10,829 nt of DNA from Promethearchaeota archaeon (GTDB lineage Archaea > Asgardarchaeota > Lokiarchaeia > Sigyniarchaeales > SOKP01): NCBI GenBank assembly GCA_004524535.1, contig SDNY01000122.1:1-10829 (forward strand), written 5' to 3'. The position numbers and the translations under genes are program-made. This document shows, in pieces, positions 3,006 through 7,135 of this stretch (position 1 is the first letter of the stretch; each line of letters opens with the position of its first letter). A model generated the notes under the pieces. That model saw nothing but the letters and a program-made list of their open reading frames with translations, was not told where the DNA came from and searched no databases.

Positions 3006-3057
3006 ACTATTCTAATGATTTTAAAATAATTCTCTTTTTAGATTTTATATCACGCCT

Positions 3058-3137
3058 ATATTATCAGAATTCGATTATATTTATATATTTGTTAACCATA
3101 TTATTTATCAAGAAGATCTAAGTAAATCTGATAATAT
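3058..3137. promoter_or_regulatory. Putative promoter (TATA-like TTTATATA at 3080-3087) flanked by a perfect 11-bp inverted repeat; candidate operator
   Basis: ATATTATCAGA (3058-3068) and its reverse complement TCTGATAATAT (3127-3137), 58 nt apart; the right arm ends 4 nt before the ATG at 3142. The region is AT-rich, so significance is moderate. Confidence 0.45.
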
Positions 3138-3141
3138 TGCG

Positions 3142-5142
3142 ATGAGTCCCGACAAAAATAGAAATGATATAGAGAAACTGCTAAAAACCTTAGGCCAAAA
3201 GATTAGAATAGACATCTTGAAGAAGTTGAAAAATAGTGAATTAGTAGTATCCTTTTCCAAGCTTCAAAAAGAAATTTTAGATACGAATCAAAATTCTCTT
3301 AATTTTTCCTACCATATAAAAGCATTAGAAAAAGTTGGTTTAATATCGAGCTCTGAGGATGGTTATTTCATTTCATCACTTGGCAAGAAAATTTTAAACA
3401 TAGTTTTATCAATGGAACAATTTCTAGACGATCAAAACAAGATTACAATGATTAGGACTTCAAAATACTCTAAAGAAGTTTTTGATTTTAAAAAAATTGA
3501 AGATTATTTGATTAAAGAGGGTGAATTAGAAAGGTACTTGGCAAAAAAAATCGCCCGTGAGGTTAAAGAACGCCTTTCTAAGATAAACATAGAATATTTA
3601 ACGTCTCCATTAATGCGAGAATTTATAAATGCTATACTTTTAGAAGAAGGTTTAGAGGATGTGAGACATAAATTAACACGATTAGGCACGCCTCCTTATG
3701 AAGTCTTTAAATTATTTAAAAATAATGAAATATTTCCAGAAAATTTTATCCAGATATTAGGTTCAGATGTTTCTGAGCAATTTTTATTACTAAATCTGTT
3801 ACCTAATCACTTGGCTGATCTTTATTTATCAGGAGAAATAGCTTTATGCCATCTAAACTATTGGAGTTTAAGACCACTAAGTATCTATGTGAATACAGAG
3901 ACATTATTGGATATAATATTCAAAAGATATTCAAATATATCTAAAAATGTTGATAATTCAAAAGATTTACTTAGTCTTTTATTAAGTTTAGTAGATTTAA
4001 TTTATCAAATAAAGCCATATTTTTCTGAAGATCTCGTATTAGGGGATTTCAACAATAAATTCCTTTCGCTTTTTAATTTTCTTAGTAAGGATAAAAACTC
4101 AGATTTTCATAAAATCTTATTTTCTCAAATTTCAAGATATAACAAAGAAATTAACGATAGTCGAAGCCATTTATCCTTAGAATTTTGTTATGATGATAAG
4201 AACCATTTAAATGGAAAAAAAAGATTTCAATTTCAAAACGATAAATTATTTTTAGAAAAACTTAACAATGGAATAAATTATAATGAAAATCACATCAATC
4301 CTTTAATCCTATTTGATTATTCAAAATTTGATTTTCAAGAAATAGAAAGCTTTGTTTTAAATGACATCAATTTATCAAATTTAGGAAAAAATTTTATCTT
4401 TTATGATAATAAATCACATTTGTTAAATTCAAACATTATTAAAATTATGAATTCTGACGAAAATAAATTTTTAAGGGCTAGAATTATTTTAGACAAAATT
4501 TTGATTAATTTAAACTCAATATCATCAGAAGCAAATCAGAATGATGATGTTTTTTGTGATTTATTACAAGATAAACTGAATTCAGTTTTTGAATTTTTTA
4601 GCTATAAAGAATCTTTAATTAATAGGAAATTAAATTCTTTAAAAAATTGGGAGCCTTTAGTATCAGATTTTTTTGGAGAAGATTTCAGAAATTGGAGTAA
4701 ATATTCGTTAAAATCAATTAGTTTTATTGGATTGAATGAAGCTATTATTAACCATTGTGGTTTAGAGCTCGATAGAGTAGTCGCAAGTCAATCATTTGCC
4801 CTTAAAATTTTATCCCTTTTAAAAGATCTAATCAATGAAAAAAATGAAAACGAAAATGAATCTTTTGTTTTGAGTCAGCCTCATCGTGATAGATATATTG
4901 CGCTATCTAAAAATAATAAGATTATGAAATTAAACAAAAAGAACCATTTTTATTCCCCAAGAATAATAAGAAAAAACTCCAAATTACCTCTACAAGAAAA
5001 AATTTCCATTTTCAAAAAATTTGAGACAGTAATTGAAGGCGGAACGAAATTCAATAATTCACTTAGTTCTAATAATATGTCAAAAGAAGAAAGTTTAAAA
5101 ATTTTAATGGAATCTAAATTAAAAGCATTTTCAATTCACTAA
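3142..5142 (+). CDS. ArsR-like winged-HTH + ATP-cone + degenerate class III ribonucleotide reductase (NrdD-like) domain protein; probably catalytically inactive
   Basis: Residues ~10-95 form an ArsR-type wHTH (LLKTLGQKIRIDILKKL...SFSKLQKEI...NFSYHIKALEKVGLI...GYFISSLGK). Residues ~103-190 match the archaeal NrdD-type ATP-cone (IRTS...FDFKKIEDYLIKE...IAREVKERL...LTSPLMREFINAILLEEGL...TRLG). NrdD barrel remnants follow: ADLYLSGEIALCHLNYWSLRP, ILINLNSISSEA, SISFIGLNEAI, FALKILSLLKD, FVLSQP, LQEKISIFKKFETVIEGG. There is no finger-loop Cys motif, no C-terminal CxxC pairs and no RxxGY glycyl-radical loop. Confidence 0.8.
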   Translation: MSPDKNRNDIEKLLKTLGQKIRIDILKKLKNSELVVSFSKLQKEILDTNQNSLNFSYHIKALEKVGLISSSEDGYFISSLGKKILNIVLSMEQFLDDQNKITMIRTSKYSKEVFDFKKIEDYLIKEGELERYLAKKIAREVKERLSKINIEYLTSPLMREFINAILLEEGLEDVRHKLTRLGTPPYEVFKLFKNNEIFPENFIQILGSDVSEQFLLLNLLPNHLADLYLSGEIALCHLNYWSLRPLSIYVNTETLLDIIFKRYSNISKNVDNSKDLLSLLLSLVDLIYQIKPYFSEDLVLGDFNNKFLSLFNFLSKDKNSDFHKILFSQISRYNKEINDSRSHLSLEFCYDDKNHLNGKKRFQFQNDKLFLEKLNNGINYNENHINPLILFDYSKFDFQEIESFVLNDINLSNLGKNFIFYDNKSHLLNSNIIKIMNSDENKFLRARIILDKILINLNSISSEANQNDDVFCDLLQDKLNSVFEFFSYKESLINRKLNSLKNWEPLVSDFFGEDFRNWSKYSLKSISFIGLNEAIINHCGLELDRVVASQSFALKILSLLKDLINEKNENENESFVLSQPHRDRYIALSKNNKIMKLNKKNHFYSPRIIRKNSKLPLQEKISIFKKFETVIEGGTKFNNSLSSNNMSKEESLKILMESKLKAFSIH

Positions 5143-6056
5143 TCGGCCAATAATTCCGCTAGGATTGCCTTTCTCATCATTAAACCATAAGATGTTTGTT
5201 TGAAGTATATTGCTTTTTTCGAACTATCTACATCTGGAGAAATTTCTGTTATTCTTGGAAGAGGGTGCATAAGGATAAATGTATTCTTTGTGTTTACTAG
5301 ATCTTCTTGTTTAAAAATATAGACATTTTTCACTTTTTCATATTCTTCCACATCAACAAATCTTTCTCTTTGAATTCTCGTCATATAAAGAACATCAAGT
5401 AGATCTAATAAACTCCTATATTGAATTACTTCTTTAAATTTGATCTGCCGCTGAATTAAAAACTCCTTTTCTTGATTCCTAATAGTTAATTCTTTTGGAC
5501 TAATAAAATAAAGGTTTACATTAAAATTTGAAAATAATACAGCTAAACTATGTACGGTGCGACCATACTTCAAATCTCCCATGATTCCTATGTTTAAACC
5601 ATCTAATTTACCACATTCCTCTTTGATTGTCAATAAATCTAATAATGCTTGAGTAGGATGTTCACCGCTACCTGAACCTGCGTTAATGATTGGAACTTCT
5701 GAAAATCGGGAAGCCAATTTGGCAGCCCCTTCCATAGAGTGTCTTATAACTATACAATCACAATAATTTTCCACAGTTCTTATCGTATCAGCAAGGCTTT
5801 CTCCTTTTTTGATTGAAGATACTTCTCCCGATTGAAACCCAATAACATTTCCTCCCAATCTATACATCGCCGATTCAAAACTTAGTCGAGTTCGGGTAGA
5901 AGGTTCAAAAAATAATGTTGCAAGTATTTTACCTTTGAGAAGATTAGTATTTGTAGAATTAACCATTTCTCTACTCTTTTTCAAGAGATATTCAATATCT
6001 TCTCTATTAAATTGCTTAGCACTTATTATACCTTCGCCAAATTTCTCTTTAAACAT
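5139..6056 (-). CDS. pyrB: Aspartate carbamoyltransferase catalytic subunit
   Basis: FFEPSTRTRLSFESA, KKGESLADT, INAGSGSGEHPTQALLDL, GDLKYGRTVHSL, YMTRIQRERF and MHPLPR are all diagnostic ATCase motifs. Confidence 0.98.
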   Translation of the reverse strand: MFKEKFGEGIISAKQFNREDIEYLLKKSREMVNSTNTNLLKGKILATLFFEPSTRTRLSFESAMYRLGGNVIGFQSGEVSSIKKGESLADTIRTVENYCDCIVIRHSMEGAAKLASRFSEVPIINAGSGSGEHPTQALLDLLTIKEECGKLDGLNIGIMGDLKYGRTVHSLAVLFSNFNVNLYFISPKELTIRNQEKEFLIQRQIKFKEVIQYRSLLDLLDVLYMTRIQRERFVDVEEYEKVKNVYIFKQEDLVNTKNTFILMHPLPRITEISPDVDSSKKAIYFKQTSYGLMMRKAILAELLAD

Positions 6057-6805: not shown

Positions 6806-7135
6806 TTATTTTTCCTTTTCATTCAATTCTTTTTTTAATTCATATAATTTGCAGTAATATTCGAAATTCAAATTATTCATATCCTGTACAATGTCGGCAT
6901 CTATGATTTTTTCACCATCAGTTTTTATCAGTAAATTCCCAATAATGTTGACTAAATTTTTTTCTGTAAAATTAAAATCAATGTTTTTAATCCTTACTTT
7001 AATATGCCCAGTTTTGTCTTCTAATATAATATGGTCATTTTCAACTAAATTTTTTACATAGCCCGTAATTTGAATTCGTTCATCTTCATTTTTCACATCT
7101 CTTATTATCCTCTGTTTCGCATATAGATTTTCCAC
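6806..7135 (-). CDS. Single OB-fold protein, replication protein A small subunit (RPA3/RPA14-like)
   Basis: The pattern AKQRIIRDVKNEDERIQITGYVK...IILEDKTGHIKV...LVNIIGNL...IDADIVQDMNNLNFEYYCKLYELKKEL resembles, from memory, Thermococcales RPA14 and eukaryotic RPA3 (OB fold plus C-terminal trimerisation helix). GTG start preceded by AGGATGGTGG on the minus strand. Confidence 0.75.
   Translation of the reverse strand: MENLYAKQRIIRDVKNEDERIQITGYVKNLVENDHIILEDKTGHIKVRIKNIDFNFTEKNLVNIIGNLLIKTDGEKIIDADIVQDMNNLNFEYYCKLYELKKELNEKEK

Follow-up and report, generated by a model that had tools for sequence, protein, structure and literature searches.

What is a protein for that joins a DNA-binding fold to the body of a ribonucleotide reductase (RNR) from which the catalytic parts are missing? 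This question is raised by P0001, encoded on contig SDNY01000122.1 of a Promethearchaeota archaeon (assembly GCA_004524535.1, referred to as G000), the 10,829 nucleotides of which were analysed as a whole and are called the window. Related genomes are numbered from G001 onwards and their family groupings f1, f2 and so on. An earlier note, made from the letters of the window, had read P0001 as a class III RNR (NrdD) repurposed as a DNA-binding regulator. As far as sequence and predicted fold allow, P0001 is indeed a pseudoenzyme, a class III RNR without any of its catalytic parts. The function we favour for it, with a probability of roughly 0.55, is that of a nucleotide-sensing, autoregulated transcription factor for deoxynucleoside triphosphate (dNTP) supply, NrdR-like without being NrdR. 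The gene and its predicted domains are arranged as follows:

3142..5142, + strand: gene for P0001, a 666-aa protein with a winged helix-turn-helix (wHTH), an ATP-cone and a dead NrdD domain; the uninterrupted frame described earlier was recovered as a single open reading frame (ORF)
3142..3441, + strand: ArsR/SmtB-type winged helix, residues 1-100 (Pfam, domain model, Foldseek)
3448..3696, + strand: ATP-cone, residues 103-185 (MIRTSKYSKE ... LTRLGTPP; PF03477, hhalign)
3697..5139, + strand: dead NrdD-type barrel, residues 186-666, to the last barrel strand (PF13597, Foldseek, VIA-align)

The barrel ties P0001 to the class III enzymes. PF13597 (NRDD, a model of 562 positions) aligned its positions 282-479 to residues 453-644 with 47.1 bits, the NrdD equivalog TIGR02487 scored 39.2 bits against a cut-off of 326, and BLASTP against the other NrdD-like protein of G000 gave 24% identity over 580 residues (E 4e-20), colinear from the cone to the last strand. 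Searched against PDB sequences, full-length P0001 yielded no meaningful phmmer match, and the family profile retrieved marginal NrdD and ArsR rows only (E 0.013-0.9). The AlphaFold2 model, based on a 37-sequence alignment (pLDDT 77.5, pTM 0.68), is predicted to contain the ten-stranded alpha/beta barrel of the RNR and glycyl-radical enzyme fold. When this model was compared with the PDB by Foldseek, the ranks listed down to 36 were all class III RNRs, with the S. thermophilus enzyme (9DCA) as the best match (E 4.6e-16) and those of T. maritima, P. copri and phage T4 among the others; further glycyl-radical enzymes and class I RNRs followed at about 1e-5. VIA-align superposed residues 198-666 of the model on residues 120-674 of P. 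copri NrdD (8P27), with Z 28.5 and a root-mean-square deviation of 3.5 A over 437 residues. These values bear out the strongly diverged NrdD barrel that had been proposed. Across solved NrdDs (P. copri 8P27/8P23, T4 1H78, T. maritima 4CON and S. thermophilus 9DCA; Z 24-28.5 over 431-470 residues), P0001 appears to share a homologous ATP-cone and ten-stranded barrel through descent from the same gene family. NrdD has an NxN flap, both catalytic Cys residues, a Zn ribbon and a radical Gly, whereas P0001 lacks all of these and carries the N-terminal wHTH in addition.

For P. copri NrdD, PMC11226230 gives a barrel at residues 123-671 and a glycyl-radical domain at 676-739 with Gly711, the roles of the catalytic Cys residues (Cys416 at the finger-loop tip), an s-site hairpin at 185-192 and a loop 2 at 295-312. 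Because residue 666 of P0001 corresponds to residue 674 of this enzyme, P0001 ends exactly where the radical domain would start, in line with the C-terminal truncation noted earlier. Catalytic positions were compared with the canonical NrdDs of sister genomes, which are about 710 aa long and match PF13597 positions 1-560 at about 480 bits. Their motifs are NENAN (NxN flap), RPFCQ (beta-1 Cys, by alignment Cys171 of P. copri NrdD), SQCCR (radical loop), a CxxC...CxxC ribbon and SR[VI]TGYY. The corresponding places in P0001, and one conserved motif of its own, are:

3871..3885, + strand: RPLSI, residues 244-248, in the place of the beta-1 catalytic Cys; by alignment, Ser247 replaces the Cys
4414..4452, + strand: SHLLNSNIIKIMN, residues 425-437, where canonical NrdD has its radical finger loop (SQCCR); no Cys
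4750..4776, + strand: NHCGLELDR, residues 537-545, a motif of the short-form clade with invariant H538, C539, E542 and D544

The canonical SQCCR aligned with SHLLNSNIIK in P0001; two alignments, offset by one column, both put no Cys at this place. The NxN flap is gone as well (NENAN to KNNEIFPE), and the Zn ribbon and SR[VI]TGYY loop are missing from a chain that stops at its last barrel strand. The four Cys residues of P0001 (236, 349, 472 and 539) all fall outside the catalytic motifs, as had been stated, and a Cys at a catalytic position, sought as a refutation, was not found by alignment with canonical NrdDs. The Cys that opens CHLNYWSLRPLSIY (residues 236-249) is Leu in most orthologues. 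C539, within an HCG motif, does not vary among the 37 aligned sequences, a point that the earlier note had not raised; canonical NrdD and the longer forms of the family described below are without Cys at this position, and NHCGLELDR may form a new ligand or redox site. With Ser247 in place of the beta-1 Cys, a finger loop without Cys, and both the flap and the Zn/Gly domain lost, alignment and model alike favour the RNR-derived pseudoenzyme that the earlier note had postulated.

Could P0001 nevertheless still be a reductase, by unconventional chemistry or with a radical partner encoded elsewhere? The apparent lack of any other RNR in G000 would speak for this. In this genome, which is 99.1% complete, class I/II RNR profiles (PF02867, TIGR02504, TIGR02505) found no match, and the real RNR and NrdG that were expected to exist elsewhere did not emerge, since the only candidate is itself dead:

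Contig C178, 623-2497: the other NrdD-like gene of G000 (locus L001), 624 aa, the sole further NrdD-like gene

This protein is 59% identical (tblastn) to the canonical NrdD of G001 and nests within the canonical Asgard clade. It has neither the SQCCR loop nor the NxN flap, has lost all that should follow the last strand, ends at a genuine stop, and shows a ratio of non-synonymous to synonymous substitution rates (dN/dS) of 0.22 against its counterpart in G005. The same dead-nrdD state was seen in G002, G005 and G008. An nrdG gene was absent from the window, as reported before, and no NrdG2 exceeded the cut-off genome-wide (best 63 bits, in a PFL-type frame). NrdG2 was likewise absent from G005 and G008, and G015 had none at E <= 1e-15; G001 and G010 have it at 153-156 bits. 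The lineage of G000 may be one of Asgard archaea that have no RNR and rely on the salvage of deoxynucleosides. Potential radical partners for a reductase would be available in G000, which encodes eight glycyl-radical enzymes of PFL type and numerous radical-SAM proteins. Yet P0001 lacks a Cys at both catalytic positions as well as the NxN flap and the glycyl-radical domain, its substrate-side loop 2 is unconserved, and its sole invariant Cys lies elsewhere, which makes a reductase very improbable. The PFL-type enzymes are spread over contigs C165, C118, C139, C11, C62, C167 and C53, include one 1094-aa frame, and in several cases adjoin radical-SAM activase-like genes. Separately, G001, G004, G009, G012 and G016 were found to carry, beside their canonical nrdD, a second truncated nrdD paralogue of about 604-618 aa (e.g. 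L060), in which SQYS replaces SQCC and the Zn/Gly domain is missing.

The low Pfam score and missing catalytic parts could also be expected of a strain-specific, decaying nrdD copy. This explanation was refuted by the conservation of the gene and is scarcely credible. After scoring 8000 candidates, 496 homologues were retained at E <= 1e-3; the best 120 of these 496 are 545-673 aa long and 49-95% identical to P0001, whose Pfam architecture is repeated in almost every one of them. The closest named homologues among the matches listed come from metagenome-assembled genomes of Hod-, Prometh-, Thor- and Hermodarchaeota. A single-copy orthologue was present in 17/17 f1, 7/7 f2 and 1/1 f3 relatives searched, and in 0/4 f4 relatives, the genomes of which have class I/II-type RNR genes. 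Whole-gene dN/dS (Nei-Gojobori) was 0.17-0.30 in six pairs and every domain stayed below 1, save for a value of 1.56 for residues 186-250 in one very close, noisy pair with very few changes. Synteny is conserved too, and the proteins form one clade: in an unrooted IQ-TREE quick tree of 48 rows, one branch (SH-aLRT 100) parted 35 wHTH proteins from 13 other NrdDs, with the groups on the wHTH side tracking taxonomy. Full-length, intact close orthologues, which would have indicated decay, were sought and not found. Orthologues share the architecture, Cys loss, C-terminal truncation and purifying selection, as the earlier note had anticipated for Asgard and TACK homologues; what it had not envisaged is how much wider the family is.

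Among 251 genomes sampled across the phylum, full-length matches including the wHTH occurred in families f1, f2, f5, f12, f16, f18, f22 and f24. A search of 1.84 billion representatives returned 685 clusters at E <= 1e-3 (143 at <= 1e-30), many of them proteins of 700-890 aa whose match begins at residue ~10. Family members were recorded in Jord/Frey-, Baldr-, Odin-, Hel- and Atabeyarchaeia, Methanomethylicia, Bathyarchaeia and Culexarchaeia, with further ESM Atlas clusters labelled Nitrososphaerota, Thermoproteota and Nanobdellota as a lead. Long forms from 80 loci were aligned (n=76, after four had been left out, three of them because their ORFs were N-masked or cut). The four ribbon Cys residues are kept in all 76, and the radical column holds Gly in 29 and Ala in 21, with 11 proteins ending earlier. 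None of the 76 has the beta-1 Cys or, in strict columns, a loop Cys. When the conserved Arg/Lys was brought into register, a Cys preceded it in nine, one of which has the Gly too; all three elements of the radical set together were found in 0/76. Many family members are named 'anaerobic ribonucleoside-triphosphate reductase' at NCBI, the misannotation that had been suspected. With such names, metabolic reconstructions credit genomes such as G000 with an RNR that is absent, and the present finding corrects this widespread annotation error.

The sensory part of P0001 would be its ATP-cone, which by sequence is genuine and under stronger constraint than any other part of P0001. PF03477 was matched by 14/15 orthologous segments (E <= 0.01), and hhalign of the cone profile against the ATP-cone of NrdDs from the same lineage gave a probability of 98.5% (E 1.6e-15). 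R105-E112 and LTRLG are invariant in the 37-sequence alignment, and the cone with its following helices has the lowest dN/dS, at 0.04-0.15 in four of six pairs and 0.22 and 0.52 in the other two. In the favoured reading it would bind ATP or dATP. A stand-alone ATP-cone ORF (locus L003), 54% identical to the N-terminus of canonical NrdD, also lies on contig C51 of G000 (~71255-71539, minus strand); it has a basic tail after the cone and no Zn ribbon, and is therefore not NrdR.

In front of the cone, the ArsR-like winged helix that had been recognised in the N-terminus matched Pfam DUF7347 at residues 14-88 (38.6 bits, cut-off 27.6). HTH_20 (19.3 bits, cut-off 27) and the NCBIfam ArsR/SmtB metalloregulator NF033788 (E 5e-5, 23 bits, cut-off 55) remained under their cut-offs. 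Modelled separately, residues 1-100 (pLDDT 89.5) folded as a wHTH with the topology alpha1-alpha2-alpha3-alphaR-beta-beta-alpha5; DSSP placed helices at 3-17, 20-31, 38-46 and 55-64, wing strands at 68-71 and 74-77, and a long helix at 79-99. The recognition helix NFSYHIKALEKVGLI (residues 54-68) resembles xxSxHLxxLxxxGL, the pattern of the ArsR/SmtB family. The top PDB matches in Foldseek were all of ArsR/SmtB type (ArsR, HlyU, NolR-DNA, SmtB, Rv0081 and CzrA; TM 0.56-0.75, with CzrA at 0.73 and Rv0081 at 0.72-0.75), and the best E was that of ArsR 6j05 (2.4e-3), so that no PDB entry matched at E <= 1e-3. All 100 N-terminal residues of P0001 thus appear to share the five-helix winged-helix fold of regulators such as CzrA (1R1U), ArsR (6J05), NolR (4OMY) and HlyU (4OOI). 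In ArsR/SmtB regulators the sensor site is inside the wHTH dimer, whereas in P0001 the sensor would be the added ATP-cone and barrel.

Which genes might such a protein control? The upstream regions of f1 orthologues are diverged except for two conserved elements and a B recognition element/TATA-like CTAAATTTTTATATA. The first element lies within the gene itself:

3149..3157, + strand: CCGACAAAA on codons 3-5, a candidate operator common to nrdD and, in this subclade, also to the deoxynucleoside kinase gene (dNK), from orthologue comparison

Sixteen of the 17 f1 orthologues have CGACAAAA at codons 3-5. The preceding codon encodes Ser, Pro, Ala or Thr and always ends in C, NNC making up 11-12% of four-fold-box codons in G000; this points to a constraint on DNA or RNA and not on the protein. 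Upstream of canonical nrdD, CCGACAAA(A) was found on the sense strand at -58 to -117 in 10/11 f1 genomes (G001, G003, G004, G007, G009, G010, G012, G015, G016 and G017, not G014) and in the one f3 genome (G019). All four genomes of the subclade (G000, G002, G005 and G008) have the site at -83 to -87 of their nrdD. This brings the total to 15/16 genomes with a wHTH gene, among which the bases flanking the nrdD site vary. In f2, two nrdD genes have CACCGACAT, and the wHTH-gene orthologues have TTTGTCGG or TGTCG-N4-CGACA upstream. The element was absent from the nrdD promoters of genomes without a wHTH-family match (0/14) and from the second truncated nrdD paralogue (0/5), and neither CCGACAAAA nor ATATCAC motifs occurred in pyrB promoters (0/17). 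Further CCGACAAAA-bearing genes in G000 are those for TFB, histone and Nre and five unannotated ORFs; among Nre genes the element is not conserved (1/18).

The dNK gene of G000 (PF01712, 48.9 bits; contig C92, 6269-6988, minus strand, with the site at 7014-7022) carries CCGACAAAA or ACGACAAAA at -33, as do its counterparts in G002, G005 and G008 only (0/11 other genomes). These four of 15 genomes are exactly the ones without a live NrdD, and we read this as the site having moved to the salvage gene when the reductase died, probably in one evolutionary event and not four. At nrdD and dNK the site is just before an A/T-rich stretch, a possible TATA box; in the P0001 gene it is inside the coding start. 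The DNA-binding regulator role proposed in the earlier note is thereby supported only indirectly, by a conserved cis-element common to nrdD and the wHTH gene, by the synteny of these two in Bathyarchaeia, and by the absence of NrdR.

The second conserved element is situated further upstream:

3047..3065, + strand: ATATCACGCCTATATTATC, ATATCAC-type units repeated in tandem (period 11 bp), 95 nt before the start codon

An A/T-rich, TATA-like stretch (3075-3088) follows about 10 nt downstream. The repeat, of the pattern ATATCAC[CG]NNNATAT[TC]A[TC]C, was seen in 13/17 f1 loci, plus one variant; it consists of two or three ATATCAC-type units spaced every 11 bp and is located 68-135 nt upstream of the start codon. 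Searching 30 related genomes for the exact pattern gave 14 hits (one for the reversed control), 12 of them upstream of P0001 orthologues in 11 genomes and the remaining two beside unrelated ORFs. In G000, a position weight matrix found 11 sites of at least 14 bits, as against 5-10 in shuffles; the site at the gene itself scored 28.2 bits and the runner-up 19.8, within shuffle expectation. No such repeat was present at nrdD loci, and the element is nearly unique to the P0001 promoter.

A number of observations weigh against P0001 as a dNTP-responsive regulator of nrdD and of its own gene. The cone scored 17.3-21.8 bits with PF03477 (Pfam span residues 103-174), under the cut-off of 25.8, and its profile recovered no solved ATP-cone from PDB sequences, the best rows being unrelated (E 0.09-1). 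It is therefore diverged, and the 'well-preserved' cone of the earlier note stands as a genuine one, with the adjective too strong. The s-site hairpin and loop 2 map, as we read the alignments, to residues 251-445, the least conserved stretch of the family (dN/dS 0.15-0.39), which makes it unlikely that P0001 keeps a canonical specificity site and tells against the suggestion that the barrel had been retained for that end. CCGACAAAA is not enriched in G000 (25 copies vs 17 for the reversed word), and its 8-mer count of 58 is close to what we estimate from composition (about 57). In f1 the element is always on the sense strand and could thus function at the RNA level or be the binding site of a different factor. 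The compared genomes are kin, so that 15/16 does not stand for 15 independent events, and the 14 negative nrdD promoters belong to different lineages, whose base composition differs too. Since the ATATCAC repeat is found at no other gene, one of the two elements needs another explanation. Finally, the wHTH gene is retained in the four genomes with a dead nrdD, which is unexpected for a pure RNR repressor.

Several of these points would be met if P0001 were a DNA-binding protein with targets outside dNTP metabolism, in which case CCGACAAAA would be recognised by a different factor or function within the mRNA, while the cone would report the energy state only. The sense-strand placement and lack of genome-wide enrichment of the element would then be expected, the ATATCAC repeat would be the better candidate for a wHTH operator, and the gene could well persist where nrdD is dead. 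What this leaves unexplained is the co-occurrence of site and gene (15/16 vs 0/14), the restriction of the dNK site to exactly the RNR-less subclade, and the tandem arrangement with nrdD in a distant class. A role in the mRNA is further opposed by the RNA fold of 3095-3200, which is no better than shuffles (z +1.37), and by an Rfam scan of the window with zero matches. On balance we regard this explanation as unlikely.

The tandem arrangement concerns 15/80 long-form loci, all from Bathyarchaeia, in which a second, far better-scoring NrdD is directly downstream; a PF02867-type gene was seen in 0/80. In the complete record of Ca. Bathyarchaeum tardum (L132), the 740-aa wHTH protein is followed by a glutaredoxin-like protein of 101 aa and a full NrdD of 733 aa (481.5 bits). 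The same synteny would suit a P0001 that acts as a non-catalytic partner of NrdD-type proteins, pairing via the NrdD dimer interface to tune or tether the live NrdD or, in G000, the other dead one, with the wHTH placing the complex on DNA, for example. The NrdD fold kept over 437 aligned residues is consistent with such pairing, as is the presence in G000 of two dead NrdD-like proteins that are both under purifying selection. Such a partner would nonetheless leave the conserved candidate operators on its own gene and on nrdD unaccounted for, and in Asgard f1 the wHTH gene and nrdD are unlinked; we therefore hold it to be quite improbable. By eye, Bathyarchaeia loci L094-L132 also display, before the glutaredoxin-nrdD pair, a conserved direct repeat that resembles TATACAGAATTTTATAC and recurs every 11 bp, in a style akin to the ATATCAC repeat of the window.

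If P0001 is the transcription factor that we favour, the NrdD-type barrel would keep it dimeric, as it does NrdD, and together with the ArsR-type helices would hold a dimer or higher oligomer. Binding of ATP or dATP by the cone would alter oligomerisation or the position of the two winged helices, and the altered assembly would change binding to the predicted operators at its own gene (autoregulation) and nrdD, repressing or activating them. The outcome would be a dNTP supply matched to the dATP/ATP ratio. In G000 and its three close relatives, where the nrdD target is dead and NrdG gone, the switch may have moved onto deoxynucleoside salvage through dNK.

The logic would be that of bacterial NrdR, reached via a different DNA-binding domain and an RNR body. 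According to PMC9110341, NrdR is an RNR-specific repressor of a Zn ribbon and an ATP-cone, found in most bacteria and only some archaea, whose cone shifts it between dodecamer, octamer and tetramer forms; in P. copri NrdD, likewise, the cone shifts the dimer-tetramer balance (PMC11226230). NrdR and P0001 both join an ATP-cone to a DNA-binding domain. Both would target RNR genes and their own gene, as proposed for P0001 from the shared element, through operators at or overlapping the promoter or start, which are candidates in P0001. The nucleotide-driven change of oligomer has been shown for NrdR and would be expected of P0001. The two differ in that the N-terminus of NrdR is a Zn ribbon, whereas P0001 has an ArsR/SmtB winged helix without Cys4 and a 480-residue dead NrdD barrel after the cone. 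NrdR boxes, moreover, are paired 16-bp palindromes, in contrast to the short direct or single sites proposed for P0001. NrdR itself (TIGR00244) had no match in G000.

A full-text literature search, with subscription journals and supplements outside its reach, found nothing on a wHTH/ATP-cone/NrdD fusion or DUF7347, and no archaeal counterpart of NrdR. The terms helix-turn-helix, HTH, winged, DNA-binding and ArsR were all absent from the texts of the RNR family surveys 10.1101/2022.04.23.489257 and PMC9669993. A Tn7 preprint that mentions Asgard nrdD is about attachment sites and not about P0001.

More tentatively, and at clearly less than even odds, P0001 might represent the missing master switch for DNA-precursor supply in Asgard and TACK archaea. 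It would descend from an RNR that lost catalysis before these lineages split, read dATP/ATP, set the expression of nrdD and of itself, and in the RNR-less lineage of G000 have outlived its enzyme and been rewired to dNK, which would mark an archaeon reliant on partners for its deoxynucleosides. Control of RNR is central to genome stability. If the favoured function is true, a whole enzyme body has been reused as the sensor of its own pathway's transcription factor, which would clearly exemplify pseudoenzyme neofunctionalisation. The protein occurs in those archaea that stand nearest to eukaryotes. Candidate operators and relatives in culture (records of Methanosuratincola and Bathyarchaeum, and an f2 genome complete in a single contig) open the idea to direct testing.

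The gene resides on an archaeal contig of low guanine-plus-cytosine content (about 27-35% in the window). On its 5' side, rpoA'', L30e, nusA, S12 and S7 are encoded on the + strand; on its 3' side are a convergent pyrB, L44e, an OB-fold ORF, PCNA and both primase subunits:

5139..6056, - strand: pyrB (aspartate carbamoyltransferase), convergent, its 3' end overlapping the P0001 gene by 4 nt

The order S12-S7-gene-pyrB-L44e is retained across f1 loci. pyrB adjoins the P0001 orthologue in 17/17 of these and is convergent just downstream in 31/80 long-form loci; it is a conserved neighbour, and its membership in the P0001 system is not shown. The convergent pairing of pyrB with the wHTH gene spans Bathyarchaeia to Asgard (long-form loci L064-L143), and in f2 pyrB is upstream of the wHTH gene on the same strand. 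Finally, a 357-nt contig from a sediment metatranscriptome run (X24) matched positions 3570-3926 of the window, the only covered part of the gene, with 4 differences, which gives a weak hint that the P0001 gene is transcribed.

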